A stretch of DNA of 31,989 bases from Candidatus Micrarchaeota archaeon (GCA_013331805.1 DUFS01000012.1:1-31989), one strand, 5' to 3'; positions 4,895 through 26,674 are shown, numbered from the stretch's first letter. Made by a program: numbers and translations. The notes: generated from the sequence alone by a model not told the origin.

Positions 4895-5176
4895 ATGGCG
4901 CAAAAAGGGGAGTTCAGCGTCCTTCTTACTGATGAGGCACTGTCTGCGCTGGACAGGCTGGACAAATCTGTAAGGGAGAGGGTGAAAAAGAGGCTGGAAG
5001 CCCTAAGGACCCTGCGCCCAGCAAGGACGCTTAGGAAGCATGGCGAGGTCTGGATCCTTGAGATTGGCGATTTCCGCGCACTTTACCTGATTGACGAAAA
5101 GGCTGCAACAAGAACTATCTTCTTTATCGGAAACCACAAAGAATATCAAAAGAGATACCTGAAGATGTTCGGTTGA
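4895..5176 (+). CDS. RelE/ParE-family toxin
   Basis: 93 aa; ALSALDRLDKSVRERVKKRL...LEIGDFRALYLIDE...FIGNHKEY. Confidence 0.82.
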   Translation: MAQKGEFSVLLTDEALSALDRLDKSVRERVKKRLEALRTLRPARTLRKHGEVWILEIGDFRALYLIDEKAATRTIFFIGNHKEYQKRYLKMFG

Positions 5177-5187
5177 AGGGAAACCAT

Positions 5188-5271
5188 TCGCTCTTCAGTT
5201 TCGCCGTTTTCTTCCCCCCTGCTGCCCGCTTTCTGCCCGCGCTAGGGCGAACAGCGCGGCAGGAGAACGAG
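5188..5271. repeat. Degenerate repeat copy R3
   Basis: Retains TCGCTCTTC.AGTTTC, CTGCCCGCTTTC, AGGGCGAA and GAACGAG blocks; hairpin CTGCCCGCGCT/AGCGCGGCAG. Confidence 0.6.
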
Positions 5272-5359
5272 CTACCTGAACGAATTGAACCATCTTTCGT
5301 ATTCCTTGTGGGTGGCAAAGCAGCGAAGGACTTTGATAAGTTCTCCCTCCTCAAGATAA

Positions 5360-6161
5360 ACGAGCCTAGCCTGCTTGGGGGGAATCTTGTTATGTCTCCT
5401 ATTTCCGCCATTATCATCAGCGCGGAGTAATGGCTTATTCCTGGGATTGTCATGATGAGCCTGGCATGGTAGTTGTCCTCTGCCATTGCCTCAACCTGTT
5501 TCTGCACGCCGTCTATCCTCTCATCGAGCGCGGGCAGGAGGAAAAGGTATTGGTCAATCTCAAACCTGCTTGCTGCAGGAAGCTCAAGCGTCTGCAGGTA
5601 TTCCATCCCCGACTTGCCAAAGATGTCCGACATCTCATAGTTTATTCCGTGCCTTGCAAGTATGGCATGGATTTTGTTTTTCACTTCAGTGCGGATGTTC
5701 ACAAGGGATGACCGCAGCCTTGCCACCTGCCTCTCATCCCTCACGCGCTGCGGCGCAACGTAGCTTTCAGGTATGAGGTCTGCACGCAGGAGGTGCGCAA
5801 GCATTTCCGCGCCTATCTTGTCCGTCTTTATCCTTGCGGAAGCAATGGCTTTTACCTGGAGTGGGTTGGCAGGCGTCATGTCAAACCCGTTCTGCTCAAG
5901 GTAGTCGTAGAGGTACTGCCAGCTGTAGCTTGCCTCCACGACTATCTTTGAGCCAGGCTCAAGCTCAGAGATGAACTCATCCACAGCTTTCATTTCATTT
6001 GGCACTTTTTCTGACATCAGCACAACTCCTTTCTCATCCATCACACAGGCGTGTGAAAACGCCCGGTGCACGTCCAATCCCACATATTGCATACCAACCC
6101 CCTCCAATTTTTTTGTTTGGCGCTCCTCTCTTATAGGTGGAGGGGGGTTTTCATGCAATCA
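5360..6161 (-). mobile_element. IS110-family element, truncated and probably inactive
   Basis: From ATG 6092: YVGLDVH, VVEAS, KTDKIGA (expected KTD..DA), TIPGIS...AEIGDITRF, after which homology is lost near 5360-5380. Hairpin AACCCCCTCCA/TGGAGGGGGGTT (6096-6149) covers the RBS. Ends are approximate. Confidence 0.88.
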
Positions 6162-16108: not shown

Positions 16109-16933
16109 ATGCATAAAGAAAGAGCACAGGCGGGCGCCAGCCCTTGCGCGTTAAGAGTAGCGGGCTGCGCAGGCCAGGCGAGCATGGAGCTCATATCAAT
16201 ACTCGGGATTGCGCTGGTCGTGATCCTCTTTTTCGCGGTTTTCTCCTCAGGATTGCTGACCGACATAGGCGTGCAGCAGGACACAAAGGATGCGAGGAAC
16301 GCGGTGCAGGGCATTGCCGAAGCCGCTGATGCAGTTTTCGCGCAGGGGGAGGGGGCAAGCAAGTCGGTTGCGATCACCATCCCGCCAAGCGCAATCTTCG
16401 GGCCGAACGACACATTCGTTGGCAAGCCTCCAAGCGCCCTGCCTTCGGCGCCTTCGAACATGGTGCGCATAAGGCTCGAAAACAATGACATCTACGCTTT
16501 CAGCAGGGCGCCTTTGGTCGGAAGCCTGCCAGGCTCGCCAGGAGGATATGTGGTGAATGTGACTTCCAGGGGCTCTTTTGTGACAGTGGGCGCAGGCCTG
16601 GTGTCAGCAAGCCCGAGCAGAGTCCGAATCGTGCTTGACCGCAGCAGCACCAAGTCGGCATTCCTGACGTTCACCATTCTCACAAACGAAACCATCGTTG
16701 GCGTGAACGTAACAAAGGATTGGGGCTTTTCAAGCCCTACAATTTCAATAACGCCTTCAATATTCACAAGCAACGGAGTTTCCAGCATGCAGGTGAAAAT
16801 CGACGCGGCTTCGGATACCGATGATGCAGGCACATACGAGGGCGCGCTCAATGTCAGCGCCTGGAAGGCAAGTGACAACCAGACGCAACAGGGCTTCCAG
16901 CTGCCTCTGAGCGTGGAGGTAAGGGTGGGCTGA
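16109..16933 (+). CDS. Class III signal peptide pilin-like protein, paralog of the upstream gene
   Basis: G|QASMELISILG; shares AADAV.AQGEGA.K.V.I.IPP with the previous ORF. Confidence 0.85.
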   Translation: MHKERAQAGASPCALRVAGCAGQASMELISILGIALVVILFFAVFSSGLLTDIGVQQDTKDARNAVQGIAEAADAVFAQGEGASKSVAITIPPSAIFGPNDTFVGKPPSALPSAPSNMVRIRLENNDIYAFSRAPLVGSLPGSPGGYVVNVTSRGSFVTVGAGLVSASPSRVRIVLDRSSTKSAFLTFTILTNETIVGVNVTKDWGFSSPTISITPSIFTSNGVSSMQVKIDAASDTDDAGTYEGALNVSAWKASDNQTQQGFQLPLSVEVRVG

Positions 16934-17337
16934 TGAAAATGCGTGCGCAGCTGTCAGTGGAGATGGTGGTGATAAGCGCCGCCATGATCGGCCTCCTCAT
17001 TGCCATGTTCCTGGTGAACGAGTACCTCCGCTCCTCCTGGGAAAGCCAGAAGCAATCGTTCCAGGCGGGCGCTGCGGCAAACAGGCTGGCAATGGCAATT
17101 AACCAGGCGTCATCCTCGGGCAACGGGGCCACGATAGCATTTTTCAACAGGGTGGGACAGGACATCACAAACATGTCGCTTTATGACGGCCGCTCGGTAA
17201 GGGCATTCTACCTTGCAGGGGGCTATTCCTCTGCCGCGATTTCAACAAACAACACCAATGTATCCGGAAGCATACCCCTCAACCAGCTGCTGCTGATAAG
17301 GAACGTCAATGGAACAATATATGTCGAGGCTGCATGA
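16933..17337 (+). CDS. Small pilin-like protein
   Basis: MKMRA|QLSVE followed by a hydrophobic helix; TGATG coupling. Confidence 0.82.
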   Translation: MKMRAQLSVEMVVISAAMIGLLIAMFLVNEYLRSSWESQKQSFQAGAAANRLAMAINQASSSGNGATIAFFNRVGQDITNMSLYDGRSVRAFYLAGGYSSAAISTNNTNVSGSIPLNQLLLIRNVNGTIYVEAA

Positions 17338-17338
17338 A

Positions 17339-17872
17339 ATGGGAAAAACCATCGCAATGAAAGGGCAGCTTCTTTCTACAGAGGTGGTGCTTGCCTTCAG
17401 CATGTTCCTTGCCGCGCTTGTGGTCTTCCTGCTTTCCTGGAGCTTCATCTCCTACTCATTTGCTTCGCAGGAGGAGGAACTGCAGATGCAACTGGCGCTG
17501 TCCGGCATTTCCGATGCGCTCGTGCTTTCGCCAGGCGACCCGTCAGACTGGGAATCCACAGTTAAGGAGAACGCAAGCTCATTTGGGCTTGCTTCTGAAA
17601 AAAACGTGCTTTCGGATCAGAAACTGTCCGCGTTGCAATCCCTGAACCAAACGCAATACGACGCTGTCCGGGAAAAAATGGGCGCAGGGCGCCACCAGGT
17701 TTACATAGAGGCGCGCTCAGGCAACGGGACGCTATTTTACAGCTTTGGAAGGAAATCCGGTCAAATGAACGGTTCGATCGCATCAGTGACTTCCGAGCGG
17801 ATGGCCATCCTAAACGATTCGATTGCCATTCTCAAGGTGGAAATCTGGAGGCAAAAAGGGGCTTTTGCATGA
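17339..17872 (+). CDS. Minor pilin-like protein
   Basis: MKG|QLLSTE followed by a hydrophobic helix; LVLSPGDPSDWE motif. Start 17339 or 17357. Confidence 0.8.
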   Translation: MGKTIAMKGQLLSTEVVLAFSMFLAALVVFLLSWSFISYSFASQEEELQMQLALSGISDALVLSPGDPSDWESTVKENASSFGLASEKNVLSDQKLSALQSLNQTQYDAVREKMGAGRHQVYIEARSGNGTLFYSFGRKSGQMNGSIASVTSERMAILNDSIAILKVEIWRQKGAFA

Positions 17873-18948
17873 TTGGGAAATCACTATCGTGCATGAGGGG
17901 GGTGTTCCTGTCCCTCGATTCAATAGCCGCGATGCTCCTTCTTTTCATAGTGGTTCTGATTTCATTTTCATACGTTTGGGCGCCCAAGAGCGCAACCTAC
18001 GAATCGCTTTCCCTTCGGGCAAGCGCGCAGGACGCGGCCACTGTGATGGAAAAGCTGGGCTACCTCCCTTCCCCCCTGGAATCCGCCAACAGCTCTGGAA
18101 CGCAGGGCATTTCCGAGGTTATCTCTTCCCTTCCTTCATCGGTTTGTATGGCGGTCGCATCCTACGGCGAGATTGTCAGCGAAGGCTTGGAGGGCTATTG
18201 GAAGCTCAATGAGGCATTCGGAAGCTCAGCGGCAGACCATTCCCAAAACGGCTTTACGGGCTCGCTCAAAGGCGGCGCTTCGTTCATTGACCCGGGCCTT
18301 TCAGGAAGCTCGGTATCTTTTGATGGGGAAGACGAAAGCCAGGTGGATACCGCCCAGAGCACAAAGCTTGAGCCGCAAAAAATCACTGTTTCAGCCTGGG
18401 TGAAGCCTCATGAGGACGGGGCAGAGGCCAGCCTTGTTGAAAGGGCAGGTGGCTACGGGCTTGGCCTTGATTTGAATTCAAAGCCTACTTTCTGGATCAA
18501 TGTTGGCGGCTCTGTTGACTCAATATCCGCGCCCAATACAGTCCAGCCAGGAAGGTGGACGCACATCAGCGGCACATTTGACAACACAACAAGGAACCTT
18601 TCGATATATGTGGACGGGAACCTTTCCAACAGCGCCATTAATGCAAACAACCTGGTTTACGGCACTCCGGGTGCGGGCAAAACCGCGGCAGTGACATTGG
18701 CAAGCGACCCCTTTGATGGGGAACTGGATGACATTCGGATCTACAGCAGGGCGCTTGAGGCATGGGAGGTGGCGCAGATCTATTCTAACAAGGACAACCT
18801 GCTTTACGTGATTGAAATGCCAGGCTGCCTTTACTCAGGCGGCGAAATACAGTCAGTTGTTGTGCCATTCGCCCATAACGCGAACCAGAACGAAAACAAA
18901 TATTACCATGCGGTCATAAAGGCATGGTTCAGGGGGACAAGGCAATGA
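17869..18948 (+). CDS. Minor pilin-like protein with inserted LamG (ConA-like) domain
   Basis: MRG|VFLSLD followed by a hydrophobic helix; GYWKLNE, SFDG, TVSAWVKP, WTHI, YVDG and DDIRIYSRAL motifs. Confidence 0.85.
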   Translation: MIGKSLSCMRGVFLSLDSIAAMLLLFIVVLISFSYVWAPKSATYESLSLRASAQDAATVMEKLGYLPSPLESANSSGTQGISEVISSLPSSVCMAVASYGEIVSEGLEGYWKLNEAFGSSAADHSQNGFTGSLKGGASFIDPGLSGSSVSFDGEDESQVDTAQSTKLEPQKITVSAWVKPHEDGAEASLVERAGGYGLGLDLNSKPTFWINVGGSVDSISAPNTVQPGRWTHISGTFDNTTRNLSIYVDGNLSNSAINANNLVYGTPGAGKTAAVTLASDPFDGELDDIRIYSRALEAWEVAQIYSNKDNLLYVIEMPGCLYSGGEIQSVVVPFAHNANQNENKYYHAVIKAWFRGTRQ

Positions 18949-20447
18949 GCGAAAAACAGGGATTCACATTCACCATTTCCATGCTCCTTTTGTGCCTTAC
19001 CTTAATCTCCATGGCTGCGTACGCCCCTGAGTGGAGGAAAAGCCAGCTCGATTCATTTGCCTTGTCCTTGCCATTCGAAGGCTTAAGGCTGCAGGAGAGG
19101 ATTTCAGCAGGAGTTGCAGAACTCCTTGGGGCAGACGCATCAGTGCGGAAAAATATCTCGGGCGTTGTATCCACAAGAATATCGGGCAGTTTCCCGTTCA
19201 AGAAGGAGGGCGAGCCGATTGCCAGGATAGACGAATATGCGAACAGCCTTCCCTATTCGTTGCGCGGAACTGGAGCCGAGCCCTTGCTTTCCGCAAACAG
19301 CCTGGTGGGGAGCAATGCCACGGTAATGGTAATTTCAGGCACAGGCAGCCTGGTTTACAATAATGACGGCTTCCAGGACATGGCAACTTACTACCACCCG
19401 GGCGGTTGGGCGCCCTCATCAATAAATTTTTCGATAAATTGCATCAAGCCAGCAGGAGAAGCCGGGTCGCTTTCTATTCAGGAGGACGGCGTTTCGCCCG
19501 GCCCTGCCTATTACATCGTGTACGGCGATGCTTCAAGCTATTCCTTGCTTGTTGAAAATACAACGGCAAATGAGGGGAATGCGTCCTTTGGCTTGTCATT
19601 TGAGGACGGAACCTCCATTTCATTCGAATCAATAGTGTCATCAACAGCTTCCAGCAATTACACGCAATTGACATACACCAAGAGCCCCAAGGGGTTCCTG
19701 ATACTTCCCTTTGAGCAGAACGCCTCAATAGGCGAAGGCCAGGTTCGCGATTACTCTGAGCGTGCGAACAATATGACACTTGGCGGAGGAAACACGGACT
19801 TTGCCCCTGCTTGGACTGAAGAAGGATGCAGGCTCGGAGCCTGCTATTCCTTTGACGGTTCGAATGACTTCATAAACAGGACGGACTTTTCCCTGACCGA
19901 AACACAGTTGGAATTCCGGCAGGGCTTGGACCGGATACTGAATGGAGGGCTGGAAAACCACACCAACAATACAGATGATGGCATTACGGATTCTTGGGCA
20001 AACTGGACATTGAACGGTTCAGCAATATTCGATTCCACAACAATAAGCGTCTCTGGGCATGCCATGAAAATATCCTCAGGAACCGCCGGGAATTTCACGC
20101 AGCAGCAAATAAGCATGCTCGAAAACGTCCCCTACACGCTTTCCTTCTTCACCAAAAGCGCAAGTGGCACGGGCTCAGGAAGCTATGCAATATATGACGC
20201 AGCTGCAGACCGCTATCTCCAGGCAGATGGAAACTGGGGCAGCGAATACTTCTTTGATACGGGGGTCACTGCAACGATTTACACCCAAGTTTCAAGGCAA
20301 TTTTCCATGCCAGCGGGCTCCAATGCAGTGCAAATAAGGCTCGCCCCCTCAGAGGGCGACCAAGTATTTTTTGACAGCATCATCCTTCGCCAGTCAGTTG
20401 GATTGAACGGAGGATTCGAATATTATTTCCCTGACACGACAAACTGA
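18945..20447 (+). CDS. Minor pilin/adhesin with N-terminal part of a LamG domain and a CBM4/9-like domain
   Basis: KQG|FTFT followed by a hydrophobic helix; LILPFE...DYS...CYSFDGSNDF; LNGGLE...YTLSF...FFDSI. Confidence 0.75.
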   Translation: MSEKQGFTFTISMLLLCLTLISMAAYAPEWRKSQLDSFALSLPFEGLRLQERISAGVAELLGADASVRKNISGVVSTRISGSFPFKKEGEPIARIDEYANSLPYSLRGTGAEPLLSANSLVGSNATVMVISGTGSLVYNNDGFQDMATYYHPGGWAPSSINFSINCIKPAGEAGSLSIQEDGVSPGPAYYIVYGDASSYSLLVENTTANEGNASFGLSFEDGTSISFESIVSSTASSNYTQLTYTKSPKGFLILPFEQNASIGEGQVRDYSERANNMTLGGGNTDFAPAWTEEGCRLGACYSFDGSNDFINRTDFSLTETQLEFRQGLDRILNGGLENHTNNTDDGITDSWANWTLNGSAIFDSTTISVSGHAMKISSGTAGNFTQQQISMLENVPYTLSFFTKSASGTGSGSYAIYDAAADRYLQADGNWGSEYFFDTGVTATIYTQVSRQFSMPAGSNAVQIRLAPSEGDQVFFDSIILRQSVGLNGGFEYYFPDTTN

Positions 20448-20453
20448 GGTGCA

Positions 20454-22898
20454 ATGAAAGTGGAAATCAAAATGGCGGCGCTGTATTCCTTTGCGGCTCT
20501 CCTAGCACTATCAGGAATTTTATTTGCCGCGCTCAACTGCACTCTTGGCGCAGGGGCAGGATGCAGCCTGGCAAGCTCATCGCCCGACTGCTGCCAGCAG
20601 GGGCTTTCCTGTTCCATACCCTTGGGGACCTGCTGCATACCCTCAAGGAGCCAGAGCTTCTCCTGCACAACCGATTCAGACTGCTGCCTGGGCAAATGCG
20701 AAAACTCCACCTGCGTTTCGCAGTGGGGCTGCGGCTCAGTGTGCGCGGAGTCAAACGAATGCGCTCCTGGCTGCCCAGTGTGCGCCGCGCCCTCAGGAGG
20801 CGGCTCGTCCGTCTGCAGCTCATGCATACTTGACGGAAGCTCCACAAGCTGCACCTCAAGCTCGCAGTGCTGCGGGGGAAGATGCAACCCTGGCACAAGC
20901 CTCTGTGAATTATGCTACGGCATCAATGTGACCTGCTCAAGGGGCTCTGACTGCTGCTCAGGAAGGTGCGAAAAGCCGCTTGCAAACGAAAGCGGCAGGT
21001 GCGCCCAGGCATTCAACCTGAGCTTTTCAGGAGGCCCATGTGCAGACAACTCAAGCTGCCGCTCTTCTCCGGCAAGCCTGAACACTCTTTTCTGCGACCT
21101 GCTCAATCCCAACCCTTCAAACCAATCGCCTGGCGTTTGCAGAAGCTGCATACCTGATGGTTTTGCATGCAATGCTTCTTCCAGCCTTTGCACTTCTGCC
21201 TATGAATGCAGGGCAGCCCCAAGCATGGGTCCCGGCAACTATTCCCTCAATGACACAGGAGGATCAGCGACTCCAATAATCGCGAACTGGGTGAAGAACG
21301 GAACAGGAAGAATCAGCCTGGACACGACAAATGAGCGCACTGGCTCTGCCTGCCTCTACCTTGAATCAGGCGGGAGTGACTCCTACATTTACAATTCGCA
21401 ACTGGTGCTGAAAAACAGCTCAAAATACTTGCTCGAGTTTTGGTACCTGAATGATGCCCCAAGGTATGCAATATATGATGCCAATAATGACGCCTATCTT
21501 TCCTCAAATGGCGGGTGGGTTTTCAGCCCGCTGAATGGAAGTTACGAAAGCCCGATCGTTTTGAGCGCAGGAGTCAATTCGGCAAGTTACAAGCGCTTTT
21601 CGAGAAATTTCAGCACGCTTGCGCACAACGTTTCCCACGTGCAGGTCCGCCTTTACCCCCCTTCTTCCGGAAGCTCCTACGTTGACGACTTTTCGGTCAC
21701 GGAAATGCACGACTTATCCATGCTGGTCTGGGTGAAGCTTCCCTCCCTTGACGATGGCAGCCTTTTTTCCAAGCTTGGGACCGAGAACGGATCATACCAG
21801 GGGATGAATTGGAAGGTGGACAATCAGGGGAAGCTTATCATGGGGCTATATAGTGCGTATCCGCTGGGCTGGGCAAACATTTCCCCAAGCGCGAACATTT
21901 CAGACGCCGACTGGCATTTGGCAGCGCTTACTGTGGACCGCATGGGCAATTACACTGCCTATCTGGATGGCGAAGAAATTGAAACCGGGGCTTTCACGCT
22001 TGGCAGGATGAATAATAGCGCCGCGTTCCAAATCGGGAATGGCGATTCTGGTTACTTCTCGGGCAAGCTGGACGAGGTCCGTTTCTACCAGCGGGCGCTT
22101 ACCTCCGCAGAAGTCCGAGGCCATTATATTGGCAATTACCAGGACAGGTGCCTTTTCAACTTGACATCGATTTATTCGTCTGCGCCTGGATTTTCCCCTG
22201 CCAGCTATAACGCATACCTTCGAGTTCGGACAGCCCTTCCGGACACAGTGCTTTACCTGCCATTCGATACGAATGTCTCCTCAGATGCGATTGGGAAAAT
22301 AATTGATTACTCCCCCATGCTCACGCCTGGCACGAAATCAGGGGCGAGGTGGACCGCAAGCGGCTGGTCAGGCGGCGCCTACAATTTCACGTCCCTCTCG
22401 GACAACAAAATTACCGTCATGTCGCCCGTATTAGAGGGTGGAATTGATTTCACGCTGGCTGCCTGGATCTACCCAACAAGCACAACAGGCCCGCATTACA
22501 TAATGGGCAACCTTGGCTCGGCAAACCCGGACGGCGCCGCGCTCATCATCGACTCCGGCCAGCTTGTCTTTTATGCGGCAGGAAAATCGATAGCAAGCAG
22601 CTTGAACCTCTCGGCAAGCCAATGGTATCACGTTTCAGCCACCAGGTTCCGCGGAAACGGCACCCTTTACATAAACGGCGCTGCATCAGGAAGCGGTGAC
22701 GCATCCGGGCAGGTAGGCGGGTCGGGCAACTTTTCCATTGGCGCTGGGCCGGACTATTCTGGCGAGGGCTTTGGAGGGCTTATAGACGAGCCGCGGGCCA
22801 TTGCAAAGGCGCTTTCGGCGCAGGAAATCTCCGCGCTTTACAAGGACGGATACCTCCTGGTCAACGGGACGCTTCCCCCCTCGAAAATGAGGGGCTGA
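20454..22898 (+). CDS. Secreted Cys-rich / CBM-like / LamG adhesin
   Basis: N-terminal hydrophobic segment; C-x5-CC-x3-C repeats; a partial LamG followed by a complete LamG; many N-x-S/T sequons. Confidence 0.8.
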   Translation: MKVEIKMAALYSFAALLALSGILFAALNCTLGAGAGCSLASSSPDCCQQGLSCSIPLGTCCIPSRSQSFSCTTDSDCCLGKCENSTCVSQWGCGSVCAESNECAPGCPVCAAPSGGGSSVCSSCILDGSSTSCTSSSQCCGGRCNPGTSLCELCYGINVTCSRGSDCCSGRCEKPLANESGRCAQAFNLSFSGGPCADNSSCRSSPASLNTLFCDLLNPNPSNQSPGVCRSCIPDGFACNASSSLCTSAYECRAAPSMGPGNYSLNDTGGSATPIIANWVKNGTGRISLDTTNERTGSACLYLESGGSDSYIYNSQLVLKNSSKYLLEFWYLNDAPRYAIYDANNDAYLSSNGGWVFSPLNGSYESPIVLSAGVNSASYKRFSRNFSTLAHNVSHVQVRLYPPSSGSSYVDDFSVTEMHDLSMLVWVKLPSLDDGSLFSKLGTENGSYQGMNWKVDNQGKLIMGLYSAYPLGWANISPSANISDADWHLAALTVDRMGNYTAYLDGEEIETGAFTLGRMNNSAAFQIGNGDSGYFSGKLDEVRFYQRALTSAEVRGHYIGNYQDRCLFNLTSIYSSAPGFSPASYNAYLRVRTALPDTVLYLPFDTNVSSDAIGKIIDYSPMLTPGTKSGARWTASGWSGGAYNFTSLSDNKITVMSPVLEGGIDFTLAAWIYPTSTTGPHYIMGNLGSANPDGAALIIDSGQLVFYAAGKSIASSLNLSASQWYHVSATRFRGNGTLYINGAASGSGDASGQVGGSGNFSIGAGPDYSGEGFGGLIDEPRAIAKALSAQEISALYKDGYLLVNGTLPPSKMRG

Positions 22899-22940: not shown

Positions 22941-24701
22941 ATGTTTGAGACTAAGATAGACCAGCTCGTGCAGTTAATCCAGAAAAGGAAAAGCGTAGGC
23001 CTTGAGGCATTGGCAAAGCAGCTGCAAATGCCGCCCCAGACCGTGGAGCTGATTTGCGCGGTGCTGGAAAAGGGCGGGCTATTGGACCTCAATTACCCGA
23101 TCAACATCACCGAAAAGCCCACGGTTGTTTTCCGCCTCCTTCCTATGGAGCCCCCCCAGGCGGAAGAGAGTATGGGCAGGGGAAAGACGATCTCAAGCTA
23201 CTCTTTCACCGCTGACGGCGTCCCTGCAAGCGTGGTGATCACCGATTCGGAGAAGGAAAAGTATTACGCGATATCGCTCATGGAGTTCGGCACAGCCACG
23301 AAAATCTTCCTGGACCTCATAAAGGACGAACTATTGAGGGCTCTTCCGGCAAGCGTGCAGAACGAGGTTTCTGACGTGGAGAAAGCGGCTGCGGTGCGGG
23401 AGGAATTCCGCTCCCTGATTGCCAAGTACCTTTCCCAGTTCAGGCTGGGCAAGGAGGCCGAGGACGTTCTTGTAGGGATGCTCCTGCACAAGCTGTTCGG
23501 CCTTGGCGAAATGGACATGCTCAACCAGGACGACTGGCTGGAGGAAATAATCATCAACAACTCCAAGGCGCCCCTTGGCGTCTATCACAGGAGGTTCGGC
23601 TGGCTCAAGACCAACATCTTCATGCCTGACGAGGAGTCGATATTCAACTATGCCTCGCAAATCGGGCGCAGGGTGGGAAAGCAGATCGCGGTGCTCACCC
23701 CCATCCTTGATGCGAGGCTGGAGACCGGCGACCGCGTTTGCGCCACGCTGATGCCCATCTCCTCGCACGGCAACACGCTCACCATCCGCCGTTTTGCCAG
23801 GAATCCCTGGACAGTGGGCAACCTGGTGGGCGATCCGGGCTACTCCATGACGCCTGAAATGGCAGGCATGCTCTGGCAGGCGATCCACTACGAAATGAAC
23901 ATCATCATCGCAGGCGGCACGGCATCCGGGAAAACCACTGCCCTGAACGCGCTTGCATCGTTCATCCCGCCGAACCAGAGGATTGTCACAATAGAGGACA
24001 CCCGCGAAATCGTGCTGCCCCCCTACCAGTGGAACTGGGTGCCGCTGCTCACGCGCAACCAGAATGCCGAAGGCTTGGGCGAAGTGTCCATGCTGGACCT
24101 GATGATTACATCCCTGCGTATGCGGCCTGACCGCATTGTCCTTGGCGAAATGAGGAGGCAGCGCGAGGCAGAGGTGCTTTTCGAGGCAATGCACACAGGG
24201 CACTCCGTCTGTTCCACGCTGCACGCCGACACGGGCATACAGGCATTGCGCAGGCTGACCACCCCGCCCATAGATCTTCCGCCCTCTGACCTCGACGCCA
24301 TCAACCTCCTGGTGGTGCAGTACCGCGACCGCAGGAAGAACATCCGCCGCACGCTTGAAATCTGCGAGATAAATACCGGAGCAAAGGACGCCGACCTAAC
24401 GACAAACGTGGTCTATAGGTGGCGCCCCAGGACCGACACTTTCGACATGGTGGGCGAGCCGAACAAGTACCTCAAGGAGCTCAACCTGCACACAGGCATG
24501 ACCAAGGAGGAAATATTCGCAGACATAAAGAACCGCGCCACCATAATCAAGTGGATGATAAACAACAAGCTTACGGACATAGAGTCGGTGGGCAGGATTA
24601 TGGCGCTTTATTACGCAAAGCCGAAAGAAGTGCTGGAAATCGCCAAGAAATCCGGGGCGGAAAAGTCAGAGCTCAAAAAGGCCGCGCCCGAGGCAGCCTG
24701 A
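22941..24701 (+). CDS. Type II/IV secretion (pilus assembly) ATPase, TadA/VirB11-like
   Basis: Walker A GGTASGKTT, Asp box TIEDTRE, LRMRPDRIVLGE, His box HTGH...TLHAD. Confidence 0.95.
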   Translation: MFETKIDQLVQLIQKRKSVGLEALAKQLQMPPQTVELICAVLEKGGLLDLNYPINITEKPTVVFRLLPMEPPQAEESMGRGKTISSYSFTADGVPASVVITDSEKEKYYAISLMEFGTATKIFLDLIKDELLRALPASVQNEVSDVEKAAAVREEFRSLIAKYLSQFRLGKEAEDVLVGMLLHKLFGLGEMDMLNQDDWLEEIIINNSKAPLGVYHRRFGWLKTNIFMPDEESIFNYASQIGRRVGKQIAVLTPILDARLETGDRVCATLMPISSHGNTLTIRRFARNPWTVGNLVGDPGYSMTPEMAGMLWQAIHYEMNIIIAGGTASGKTTALNALASFIPPNQRIVTIEDTREIVLPPYQWNWVPLLTRNQNAEGLGEVSMLDLMITSLRMRPDRIVLGEMRRQREAEVLFEAMHTGHSVCSTLHADTGIQALRRLTTPPIDLPPSDLDAINLLVVQYRDRRKNIRRTLEICEINTGAKDADLTTNVVYRWRPRTDTFDMVGEPNKYLKELNLHTGMTKEEIFADIKNRATIIKWMINNKLTDIESVGRIMALYYAKPKEVLEIAKKSGAEKSELKKAAPEAA

Positions 24702-24727
24702 AGGGCAGAGGCAACCGGCTGGTAAAC

Positions 24728-25627
24728 ATGAAAATCAAGCGTATCCCCTTCATGCTTCTTCCTCTTTCAAGCGCGCACACCATGGGCTCCAGGTTCAGGG
24801 GCGTCGGCATCAGGATATTGGGATTCTACCCGGGCGTGCGATACGACCTGAGGGCAGTAGGCTTTGATGAGCCGCCTGAAAACTACTGCACCATCGCCTT
24901 CTTTTCGGCAATGGTCTGGTCCGTATTGGTGACGATCGTGGTCACCATGATAATGCTGGTTGCCGGCGGCACCCTGCCCCTGCCGGTCAAGATCCTGGTC
25001 CCTTTTCTTACCTCGTTTATCATGACGTTCCTTGTGCTTATTGTGCACCTTGCCTATCCCAAGATAATCTCGGGCGGCATATCGGCAAAGGAGGACCGCG
25101 AGCTGATCTTCGCAATGAGGGACATGCTGATACAGATATCCTCGGGCGTCCCCTTCTTCAACGTTGTGGAAAATATTGGCAATTCGAACTACGAATACCT
25201 TTCCGATGAGTTCAAGGACATCACCAACAAGGTGAAGGCAGGCTCCCCGCTGCTTGATGAAATAGAGAGCATGGCGATCCGCACCCAGTCCGAGTACCTG
25301 AAAAAAACCTCCTGGCAGCTGGTGACCGCGATACGCACCGGCGCCAACCTCACACAAACCCTGAAAAGCATAGTAAAGGTCCTGGTGGACTACCAGTTCT
25401 CGCTTTCAAAGTCCTTCAATGCCGAGCTCAACTTCATCATACTCGTCTACCTCATGACAGCCGCTGTGCTGCCCACCATCGGCACCACTGTGCTCGTAAT
25501 TTTCTCGGTGTTCGGAATGCTGGGCATCACAAGCGAGGTTTTCCTCGGGATAATCTTCCTGAGCTTTTTCGGGCAGATGGGAATAATCGCATATGTGAAC
25601 TCCAAGAGGCCGAACATATTCGCATGA
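24728..25627 (+). CDS. Type II secretion F-domain (TadB/TadC-like) membrane platform protein
   Basis: TM pair, then ELIFAMRDM...SSGVP...LSDEF and AIRTGANL, then C-terminal TMs. Start at ATG 24728. Confidence 0.88.
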   Translation: MKIKRIPFMLLPLSSAHTMGSRFRGVGIRILGFYPGVRYDLRAVGFDEPPENYCTIAFFSAMVWSVLVTIVVTMIMLVAGGTLPLPVKILVPFLTSFIMTFLVLIVHLAYPKIISGGISAKEDRELIFAMRDMLIQISSGVPFFNVVENIGNSNYEYLSDEFKDITNKVKAGSPLLDEIESMAIRTQSEYLKKTSWQLVTAIRTGANLTQTLKSIVKVLVDYQFSLSKSFNAELNFIILVYLMTAAVLPTIGTTVLVIFSVFGMLGITSEVFLGIIFLSFFGQMGIIAYVNSKRPNIFA

Positions 25628-25636
25628 GCTGGTAAC

Positions 25637-26674
25637 ATGGCAAGATACGTTATTGACAAGCGCTTTTCCACTTTCTTTAGGCCAAGGACCAAGGACCGCA
25701 TTGCCCAGCTGCTCACCTTTGCGGGCGTGGAAACCAGCCCTGAAGTCTGGATAGGCTCACGGATACTTATAGTTCTCCTTTTCGGCCTGGTGGGCGCGAT
25801 AATACCTTTTTCCGTCCTGCAATACATCGATCTTTCGGCATACCCGATATTGAAAGACCCCACCTTGCCTGCCCGGATAATCCTGAGCTTTGTTACCGCA
25901 GCGGCATTCTCGGTAATCGCAGGCATACTCATCTACATGCACCTCTATTACCTGGTCACCGAGCGCACGCAGAGGGTCGAAAGGGTGCTTCCTGACTTCC
26001 TTTTGATGGTCGCAGCCAACCTCCGGTCCGGCATGACGCCGTTTTCAGCCTTCCAGGCATCCTCCAGGCCGGAATTCGGGCCGTTGCAGTCGGAAATCAT
26101 ATACGTTTCCAGCCGCTCGCTCGGAAGCGAGTCCTTTTCCGAGGCGCTTCGGGGGCTCACCACCACGATCGACTCGGCCATGCTTCGGCGCATGATTGCA
26201 TTCTTTGAGAACGAACTCAAGTCAGGAGGGAAGCTGGCGCACTTGCTGGAGACCTCTGCAGAGGAAATCCGGGAGACCGAGGAAATAAAGCGCCAGATGA
26301 TGATAGCCACCAAATCCTACGCGATATTCCTGGGGTTCATACTGGTATTCGGTCTGCCGCTTCTTCTTTCGATCTCCACGCAGTTCCTTTCCATATTCAC
26401 CGATTTCCAGAAGAACATAGTCGCAACAGGTGACACGGCCAAAATCGCCGGCCTATCCTCCCCCAAGCTATCGGTGGACTCGGGCTTCATAGAAGCCATG
26501 GCATTCGTGATAATAGTCGGCACATCCATCCTGACCTCTGTCCTCATCGGCGTCATCGGGGAGGGCAAGATACTCTACGGGCTCAAGTTTTTCCCCCCGC
26601 TAGCCTTGGGCTCCATCGTCATGTTCATCATATTCAAGACGGTCATCTCGGGCTTCGTGGGAGAGCTCATCTGA
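25637..26674 (+). CDS. Type II secretion F-domain (TadC-like) membrane platform protein
   Basis: LPDFLLMVAANLRSGMTP...EFGPL and SGGKLA.LL motifs. Confidence 0.9.
   Translation: MARYVIDKRFSTFFRPRTKDRIAQLLTFAGVETSPEVWIGSRILIVLLFGLVGAIIPFSVLQYIDLSAYPILKDPTLPARIILSFVTAAAFSVIAGILIYMHLYYLVTERTQRVERVLPDFLLMVAANLRSGMTPFSAFQASSRPEFGPLQSEIIYVSSRSLGSESFSEALRGLTTTIDSAMLRRMIAFFENELKSGGKLAHLLETSAEEIRETEEIKRQMMIATKSYAIFLGFILVFGLPLLLSISTQFLSIFTDFQKNIVATGDTAKIAGLSSPKLSVDSGFIEAMAFVIIVGTSILTSVLIGVIGEGKILYGLKFFPPLALGSIVMFIIFKTVISGFVGELI

Follow-up and report, generated by a model that had tools for sequence, protein, structure and literature searches.

A lectin-type domain encoded in two pieces beside archaeal type IV filament genes: a candidate split-domain docking pair in Candidatus Micrarchaeota

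Background

Micrarchaeota, like other DPANN archaea, spend their lives attached to host cells, and little is understood of how the attachment works. In bacterial type IVa pili, the non-pilin tip adhesin PilY1/PilC is carried by a complex of minor pilins. Here we present an analysis of a 31,989-nt stretch of DNA from Candidatus Micrarchaeota archaeon (GCA_013331805.1, DUFS01000012.1:1-31989; hereafter the window, to the whole of which all positions refer), in which two adjacent genes of a type IV filament operon, designated A and B, encode complementary parts of one LamG domain and of the carbohydrate-binding modules (CBMs) nested within it. We think it likely that A and B are a real, conserved split-domain docking pair, predicted to bind each other, which came about when a modular pilus protein was divided within a nested domain.

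Modular type IV pilins have been described in Streptococcus sanguinis, where PilC carries a ConA-like lectin module and PilB a vWA module (PMC9934059). They share with the locus described here a class III signal and pilin moiety with a grafted adhesive module, the ConA-like lectin fold and a proposed location at the tip beside other minor pilins; the unsplit relatives of A/B presented below (G014, P0002 and others), together with the neighbouring gene U, are of this same design. In S. sanguinis, however, the module lies within one chain, whereas here CBMs are nested in it and the sandwich is divided between a pilin gene and a secreted protein, and the organism is an archaeon rather than a Gram-positive bacterium.

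B resembles PilY1/PilC in being a large non-pilin protein that would be secreted by a signal of its own, in having its gene among those of minor pilins and, as we propose, in being presented by minor pilins. Unlike PilY1/PilC, B gave no match to that family: the PilY1/PilC C-terminal beta-propeller was absent from a Pfam scan of B (E up to 1), in which only three Laminin_G families were listed. Furthermore, docking is proposed here as the rebuilding of one split domain and not as an association of complete domains. The PilY1/PilC type of adhesin is mentioned in the discussion of the S. sanguinis study (PMC9934059).

The completion of an incomplete beta-sandwich by strands of another chain, giving a very stable non-covalent extracellular link, is the principle of donor-strand complementation, described for chaperone-usher pili and for archaeal threads, cannulae and bundling pili, the archaeal ones being non-type-IV filaments. 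In those cases a single donated strand completes an Ig-like fold, in pilus subunits one that lacks its last strand and receives the N-terminal extension of the following subunit, and polymerises identical or similar subunits, whereas here a ~65-residue third of a ConA-like sandwich, possibly with a CBM strand, would join two different proteins one to one in a type IV filament locus. As modelled, A/B works like donor-strand complementation without being a member of that class, since it involves a ConA-like sandwich together with a CBM, and its two partners are different proteins.

In the micrarchaeon Mia14, LamG-domain proteins are linked to type IV pilus loci and are proposed to act in host contact (PMC5498576). 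Phylum, domain type and genomic association are thus shared with the A/B locus; the part of that account available to us deals with abundance and linkage and contains no nested CBMs, split domain or two-gene arrangement. LamG proteins beside pilus genes have thus been noted before, but not the way in which they are mounted on the pilus. In the open-access literature searched, PMC13705601 included, we found neither a lectin-type domain whose parts belong to a pilin and to a secreted partner nor fold complementation on archaeal type IV pili, and as far as these searches reach, a split-domain docking pair is new for such pili.

A conserved fission inside a beta-sandwich, accompanied by unsplit natural controls, offers a concrete and testable explanation of how large, variable adhesins could be mounted on a pilus. 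Natural examples of a single non-enzymatic extracellular domain encoded as two secreted pieces are rare, and this one bears both on the extent to which domains tolerate being interrupted or divided and on how split-protein coupling tags might be designed.

Results and discussion

Domain anatomy of A and B

The translation of gene A (Table 1) begins with MSEKQG followed by FTFTISMLLLCLTLISMAAY, a class-III-type signal (KQG/FTFTIS) with the hallmarks of a type IV pilin, namely a short charged leader ending in G or A and a hydrophobic stretch of ~20 residues leading into a long helix. An alternative ATG is located at 18924. The Pfam Class_IIIsignal model, which has 27 positions only, gave no match in A, and an Atlas look-up of the N-domain returned only unnamed archaeal clusters at 0.83-0.84. 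Judged from their sequences, A is a putative minor pilin and B a putative adhesin.

Beyond the N-domain, A carries just the first ~65 residues of a LamG/ConA-like sandwich (LamG-N). The motifs that open a LamG_3-type sandwich are present: LILPFE at residue 252, RDYS, W and GACYSFDGSNDF, which ends at residue 309 (19698-19871). Scanned alone against Pfam, this 81-residue piece gave no LamG match. It is followed by a complete CBM4/CBM22-like module, CBM1, starting with LNGGLE at residue 332. The only Pfam family found in A is CBM_4_9 (PF02018), with residues 333-466 covering profile positions 6-129 of 136 at a borderline score (22.7 bits for whole A and 26.8 bits for the fragment, against a cut-off of 25.9). 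CBM1 also aligns with residues 2-152 of 155 of the solved domain 1gui_A (E 6e-4), and its Foldseek matches are CBM4-2, CBM22 and CBM16 (E ~1e-7, target TM-score 0.62-0.72). A then ends almost at once, with GLNGGFE at residue 486, 15 residues ahead of the stop, and the C-terminal end GLNGGFEYYFPDTTN. A GLNGGFE-type motif also opens the complete second CBM of the fused relatives, and corresponds to CBM_4_9 profile position 5 in one of them, P0009.

The missing parts are found in B. Behind its hydrophobic N-terminus MKVEIKMAALYSFAALLALSGILFAALN and a Cys-rich module, for which a Pfam scan and an Atlas look-up gave no usable match to a known family, lies a second CBM (CBM2, with IIANW at residue 275) that has no NGGFE strand. 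CBM2 gave no match in a Pfam scan; it is tied to CBM_4_9 through its hhalign alignment to CBM1 and through homology to P0009, whose CBM covers profile positions 5-118. The homology of the two modules far exceeds what chance would give (hhalign probability 99.4%, E 4.9e-21 over 152 columns; six-frame matches with E 2e-7 and 2e-8), and the hhalign alignment has gaps in B opposite the NGGLE of A. The remainder of a LamG domain (LamG-C) follows CBM2 directly, from DLSMLVWVK (DLSMLVW at residue 420, position 21711) through RFYQRAL at residue 543, and a complete LamG opens with LYLPFD at residue 600.

Laminin_G_3 (PF13385) matched B in two stretches (149.1 bits, cut-off 27.6), the first covering profile positions 15-150 of 151 and the second 4-151; because this Pfam model starts after the first strands of the fold, coverage of 15-150 understates what B lacks. 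Solved ConA-like domains align to LamG-C only from about chain residue 68 (4qvs_A, 68-218 of 227; 5hon_A, 69-203 of 209), and the equivalent segment of a fused relative covers TS_C profile positions 67-201 of 202. The second LamG of B is thus a complete sandwich within one chain and the first is not.

The initial annotation, made from the sequence, had placed both open reading frames at these positions and had read A as the first part of a LamG with a complete CBM and the mere start of another, and B as the rest of a homologous CBM without its NGGFE strand, the remainder of the LamG and a complete LamG. Motif positions, Pfam, hhalign and solved-domain alignments agree with this description, as does the comparison of hidden Markov model coverage that it had called for, with CBM_4_9 nearly whole in A, no LamG match for LamG-N and Laminin_G_3 positions 15-150 in B.

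The junction

In the source genome (G000), A and B are in the same frame, and a Shine-Dalgarno-like hexamer, GAGGTG, lies immediately 5' of the ATG of B. TGA, the stop codon of A, terminates 12 of the 19 genes of the window, among them those of the ATPase, argininosuccinate synthase and triosephosphate isomerase. Contigs from four other sequencing runs, representing at most four samples and three studies, span the junction, differing from the window by two substitutions and by no indel; one contig of 1984 nt covers 19600-21232, and others cover 20342-21000 and 20387-20983. The misjoin at this boundary that the initial annotation had named as a possible refutation is thereby contradicted. All four runs read A at position 20401, replacing the Gly before LNGGFE by Asp or Glu, and G at position 20646; both represent population variation, the former beside the conserved tail. 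Also, a split intein was considered and rejected: Pfam scans found no intein family in A or B, A runs only 5-20 residues past NGGFE.YY, and B starts with a signal peptide.

Split and unsplit forms in one genus

Among 41 genomes, the B query matched 23 and the A query 15, the latter all of a single genus; A was found in one of the 15 genera searched, and among the 80 loci fetched with the ATPase the family was present only where the locus came from this genus. A related-locus search with protein A as query returned no relative. The family therefore appears confined to one genus, a narrow distribution for a mechanistically unusual arrangement.

We fetched 16 regions from 15 genomes and mapped their open frames (the counts that follow include the source genome). 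A followed by a signal-bearing B was found in eight genomes (G000, G002, G004, G009, G016, G019, G018 and G010; the A of G018 is cut by the contig start), and in two more (G006, G011) the frame behind A is giant, bears a signal and is cut off by the contig end. In all eight readable junctions, A ends soon after NGGFE.YY (NFGFETTY in G010), and the first Met of B, followed by a hydrophobic stretch, lies between 4 nt before and 29 nt after the stop of A. B is in the frame of A in three genomes (G000, G002, G019) and in another frame in five (G016, G004, G009, G018, G010), and the stop codon of A varies between TGA, TAG and TAA. N-termini comparable to that of B occur in seven relatives, and every complete B starts with a hydrophobic stretch, of signal type by its sequence. 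In G010, A has no CBM1 and consists beyond the N-domain of LamG-N, a short linker and the first-strand motif HNFGFETTY before its stop. In G003 and G022 the B module closes giant frames that extend to the edge of the contig, and no A-type gene was found in either, an uninformative result since the upstream DNA runs off the contig; G007 is truncated by its contig.

Unsplit chains are found in the same genus. G014 (1091 aa) and G012 (1232 aa) are unsplit and have no cargo. The order in G014 and in the database chains P0002, P0007 and P0008 is LamG-N, CBM, CBM, LamG-C, LamG, with no stop, signal or Cys-rich module, which is the LamG-N[CBM][CBM]LamG-C chain that the initial annotation had postulated as ancestral. 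The number of nested CBMs varies in unsplit chains, being one in P0009 and P0010 and three in G012. G008 is also unsplit, with an uninterrupted frame of 1520 residues in which a Cys-rich insert of ~550 residues has neither an internal signal nor a stop.

When 1.84 billion cluster representatives were searched exhaustively with the fused region of G014 (576 residues), 5202 matches were obtained at E ≤ 0.001. The best 150 of these 5202 were compared by blastp at 1e-8, where 108 matched; 42 were classed by script, and 66 matched only parts of the query, such as an ordinary LamG. Another homologue search with the fused region gave only five matches among 7999 scored candidates. The script assigned 4 of the 42 as fused with two CBMs (the query included), 13 as A-type and 25 as B-type; two of the last (P0009, P0010) proved on reading to be fused chains with a single nested CBM, leaving 23. 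The split is accordingly found well beyond one assembly, as the initial annotation required, in 8/8 readable junctions and in these 13 further A-type representatives. Every A-type chain ends within 25 residues of the motif (13/13) and none runs on; the motif is NGGFE in 12 and AGDFESYY in the remaining one, and all 12 full-length A-types have the pilin-type start ..[KRS]G/FT.T.S. Of 17 B-types inspected, seven look like fragments; the other 10 open with a hydrophobic stretch of signal type, lack NGGFE and have a Cys content of 4-16% upstream of the CBM.

As a domain cannot arise in two pieces, the unsplit form is ancestral, and the unsplit relatives imply that the A/B arrangement arose by gene fission. 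An unrooted tree of the region from the rest of CBM2 to LamG-C (36 rows, with G012 excluded for its long branch) separates 29 cargo-bearing rows (28 B-type and G008) from seven cargo-less rows by one branch with support of 99/99, and a quick tree including G012 gave the identical grouping (SH-like approximate likelihood ratio test, 93). A single event in which cargo entered the last CBM behind its first strand would fit this grouping. G008 groups within the cargo-bearing rows with P0062, an N-terminally incomplete record (97/93), and is either a retained intermediate or a re-fusion. The cargo ranges from the 230-residue Cys-rich module of the source genome to more than 3000 residues in some relatives, its type changing while the docking module stays.

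Several further features of these relatives were observed. In G006 and G011 (L039, L034/L035), the giant cargo 3' of A is Cys-poor and rich in NN..G..L-type repeats, a pattern that suggests a beta-helix. The B of G010 (L028, a 2070-aa frame) and P0019 (1523 aa) have a C-terminal extension of ~700-1100 residues past the complete LamG, made of short Cys-rich repeats (..CGG.GQ.CC..). Cargo-less fused chains have a conserved C-terminal ..G[PS].[VI]ASxD/G (e.g. GPVVASRD), and most split B proteins end differently (..LP.S..). In the fused chain of G012 (L026:444-4139, minus strand), a third CBM-like unit at residues ~775-945 (LQDGEFEIPQ ... YYVDSVSLLSI) is nested just before the last LamG strand (GLIDEVRVY); since this is another site, the sandwich tolerates insertions at two different loops. 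P0048, an unrelated giant protein (4243 aa; ..AYTFDGSTGYLRQKTY ... RKTDFQITGNLTVGAWVKA), has an insert of ~100 residues at the same LamG loop as the CBMs, and the CBM-bearing loop may be a general insertion hot spot.

Conservation and selection

In 17 split A proteins the tail is the best conserved segment, with a majority fraction of 0.76, compared with 0.69 for the pilin N-terminus, 0.57 for LamG-N and 0.49 for CBM1. Five of the 11 tail columns are at least 90% conserved across these rows, and the GFT.T.S motif of the N-terminus is likewise at least 90% conserved. In the alignment, the invariant D, Y, C..C and F.G positions of LamG-N, including the C295/C300 pair, are retained in split and fused forms alike. 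The ratio of nonsynonymous to synonymous substitution rates (dN/dS) between G004 and G016, the single unsaturated pair and one with small counts, was 0.11 for A, 0.12 for LamG-N and 0.12 for the LamG-C of B, more distant pairs being saturated; the A tail has no nonsynonymous and two synonymous changes in this pair. On this one pair, both halves are under purifying selection.

Structure models of single chains

For structure prediction, alignments mixing CBM1 with CBM2 were discarded and the A rows of the folding alignment were cut to LamG-N, leaving CBM1 of the fused G014 model covered by four rows only. The AlphaFold2 model of the G014 fused region had a mean predicted local distance difference test score (pLDDT) of 81.1 and a predicted template modelling score of 0.72, with LamG-N at pLDDT 70-90 and LamG-C at 84-96. 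In VIA-align, 198-202 residues of this model, drawn from the range 8-567, aligned on single contiguous solved jelly-roll domains of ~205-230 residues (Z 20-23, root-mean-square deviation 2.0-2.6 Å), namely the LamG-like domain of an arabinanase and lectin-like domains from clostridial neurotoxins and from the proteins that accompany them. Since LamG-C has only ~150 residues, the 198-202 aligned residues mean that the LamG-N strands must belong to the same sandwich, and the model thus places the CBMs of the unsplit relative within its LamG.

Folded alone, A gave a mean pLDDT of 72.7, with CBM1 at 77-92, LamG-N at 58-66 and a tail below 50 (disordered), and a fold search with this model returned CBM folds only. 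By comparison with the 70-90 of LamG-N in the fused chain, A alone is not confidently folded throughout, in line with the initial annotation, which had counted complete folding of each chain alone against the split.

A predicted A-B complex

Residues 262-575 of B and 240-500 of A were folded together, each with its own alignment. The interface score derived from predicted aligned errors (ipSAE) was 0.77, 0.76 and 0.77, with the best of three controls at 0.37; the mark used is reached by 116/157 solved complexes and 2/215 mismatched pairs, which are rough counts here since own alignments were used. The A-B runs had at least 69% of contacts in common, and partner pLDDT was at least 75. The confident interface comprises A residues 247-256 and 294-324 and B residues 413-421, 524-530 and 533-547. 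Contacts with least error link A 301-303 and 309-312 to B 524-530 and 534-539; in a single sandwich these N- and C-terminal strands would be expected to pair. CYSFDG and DFINR of A lie against GKLDEV and AFQIG of B. A LamG sandwich completed across the two chains is thus predicted, reconstitution being shown only by a model, and what this model indicates is that the pieces fit the fold, not that they bind. The initial annotation had foreseen two sandwiches completed in this way. The model supports this for the LamG; for the CBM it gives no such support so far, A489 being the only tail residue in the confident interface.

Proposed assembly and alternative explanations

We suggest that the ancestor was a pilin-type protein with a LamG/ConA-like sandwich, into which between one and three CBM4-like modules had been inserted, at the loop that follows the first strands. 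In the source lineage, a large, variable cargo would have been inserted in the loop behind the first strand of the last CBM, and the gene would then have been cut at the cargo site, the downstream half gaining a ribosome-binding site, a start codon and a secretion signal. A would be exported and processed as a type IV pilin and B secreted separately; as both products would face the outside of the membrane, they could meet there, and the LamG N-terminal strands of A (~247-324) and the LamG-C of B (~413-547) would form one rebuilt sandwich. The conserved NGGFE tail of A would probably donate the missing first strand of the CBM of B. B and its cargo would then hang non-covalently on the pilus subunit, plausibly for attachment to host cells or surfaces; incorporation into the pilus, docking of the CBM strand and the adhesive function are what we infer from these features. 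In a fuller version, the genus would use a natural plug and socket: the third of a lectin sandwich and the CBM strand of the pilin would be a two-point plug, and separately secreted cargo proteins of 230 to more than 3000 residues, which diversify rapidly, would lock onto it by fold completion. We hold this version to be evenly balanced between right and wrong; if true, it would be a previously undescribed way of arming a type IV pilus and a natural counterpart of engineered split-protein tags.

Several observations weigh against the proposed docking. The ipSAE may reflect model memory of the common ConA-like fold, and the halves of a split domain tend to pass. In the fused G014 model, the NGGFE segments of both CBMs had pLDDT of ~55-68 and were not called strands. 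A segment of B with no homology, NYSLNDTGGSATPII, sits where the missing strand would be and could replace it. Completion of the second sandwich by the A tail, which homology and conservation suggest, is not supported so far, with A489 alone of the tail in the confident interface. G008 indicates that cargo alone does not force a split, the selection estimate comes from one pair, and none of the RNA runs searched for the stretch was found to contain it. In addition, the B of G004, G016 and G019 has a Cys directly after the hydrophobic stretch (..IFAGC, ..IWGGC), resembling a lipobox; B may be lipid-anchored in some species, which would complicate a pilus-borne model.

One alternative is that the split is real and the halves do not reassemble, LamG-N and the tail being leftovers or having another role in A and the truncated modules of B folding by themselves, perhaps with the end of the Cys-rich module replacing strands. 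The unrelated segment in the place of the missing CBM strand and the near absence of the tail from the modelled interface speak for it, and B 262-575 kept a pLDDT of 74-83 in controls with A replaced, so that the model draws B without A. Leftovers would decay, however, yet the tail is the most conserved part of the 17 split A proteins, the invariant LamG-N positions are kept in split and fused forms, LamG-N has a dN/dS of 0.12, and the A of G010 has lost CBM1 while keeping LamG-N and the tail. Also, solved ConA-like domains need ~65 more N-terminal residues than B has, and A alone has low confidence exactly in LamG-N and the tail, with only CBM folds found in a fold search. We therefore regard this explanation as unlikely.

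That the split is only apparent, A and B being one polypeptide made by read-through of the TGA at 20445 or by recoding, would accord with the single in-frame stop in G000, G002 and G019 and with the uninterrupted frame of G008, which holds a Cys-rich module inside; yet B is in a different frame from A in five of the eight genomes, the stops differ between genomes, and TGA is the ordinary stop of most window genes. Moreover, B has its own Shine-Dalgarno-like hexamer and a signal-type stretch that read-through would bury mid-protein, a stretch that G008 does not have at its junction, and we consider read-through very improbable. An assembly error or a recent pseudogene of a fused gene might be suspected in a metagenome-assembled genome of 83 contigs, but four other runs bridge the junction without an indel, the split recurs in all eight readable junctions and in 13 A-type and 23 B-type cluster representatives, and both halves are under purifying selection, making error or decay barely credible. 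A conserved split-domain docking pair remains the reading we favour.

Genomic context and other features

The source genome is small (1.19 Mb, 91.5% complete), and the stretch is present in metagenome runs from groundwater and soil. A and B are embedded in a type IV filament operon of three pilin-like genes, gene U, A, B, an ATPase gene and two platform genes, so that the pair is flanked by four other pilin-like genes (gene U included) on one side and by the ATPase and platform genes on the other (Table 1). In 10 of the relatives fetched, gene U is conserved on the 5' side of A or, where the gene is fused, of the latter; its residues 156-302 match Laminin_G_3 positions 4-151 with 97 bits in Pfam.

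Table 1. Features of the A/B locus and the surrounding filament operon
Feature	Position	Strand	Description or basis
Pilin-like gene	16109..16933	+	Hydrophobic N-terminus after ..GQA/SMELISILG; translation
Small pilin-like gene	16933..17337	+	MKMRA/QLSVEMVV
Pilin-like gene	17309..17872	+	..MKG/QLLSTEVV; sequence
Gene U	17869..18948	+	Pilin-like N-terminus and one complete LamG
Gene A	18945..20447	+	500 aa; N-terminus of pilin type, N-domain, first third of a LamG, CBM4-like module, tail with NGGFE
A residues 6-61, predicted long N-terminal helix (pilin alpha-1-like)	18960..19127	+	AlphaFold2 helices 6-41, 43-61
LamG-N, A residues 246-313	19680..19883	+	First strands of ConA-like sandwich; alignment; complex-model interface
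CBM1, A residues 331-485, complete CBM4/CBM22-like module	19935..20399	+	CBM_4_9, 1gui_A, Foldseek
A residues 486-495, GLNGGFEYYF, first-strand motif of second CBM	20400..20429	+	Most conserved A segment
Junction	20445..20453	+	TGA stop of A 20445-20447; GAGGTG 20446-20451; ATG of B 20454
Gene B	20454..22898	+	814 aa; signal peptide, Cys-rich module, CBM without first strand, LamG without N-terminal third, complete LamG
B residues 1-28, hydrophobic signal-type N-terminus	20454..20537	+	Sequence
B residues 29-262, Cys-rich cargo module	20538..21239	+	14% Cys upstream of CBM
CBM2, B residues 273-419, without NGGFE strand	21270..21710	+	hhalign to CBM1; alignments with fused relatives
LamG-C, B residues 420-554, last two thirds of sandwich	21711..22115	+	Laminin_G_3 78.6 bits, profile 15-150
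LamG2, B residues 600-795, complete LamG	22251..22838	+	Laminin_G_3 81.4 bits, residues 650-793 = profile 4-151
Type IV filament assembly ATPase	22941..24701	+	T2SSE, E 5.9e-33
Two platform-protein genes	24419..26674 (24419-25627, 25637-26674)	+	T2SSF, E 3.4e-13 and 2.6e-12

Pfam scans assigned no family to the first pilin-like gene, whose true start may be an internal Met, and nothing significant to the third; the small gene between them reached 15.3 bits against Class_IIIsignal (E 0.02), under the cut-off of 23.7. The first platform frame overlaps the ATPase gene by ~280 nt, and the real start of its protein is probably later, at an internal Met near 24720. An IS110-family transposase gene is located ~10 kb upstream of the pilus operon (5124-6158, minus strand; DEDD_Tnp_IS110, E 1.5e-24).

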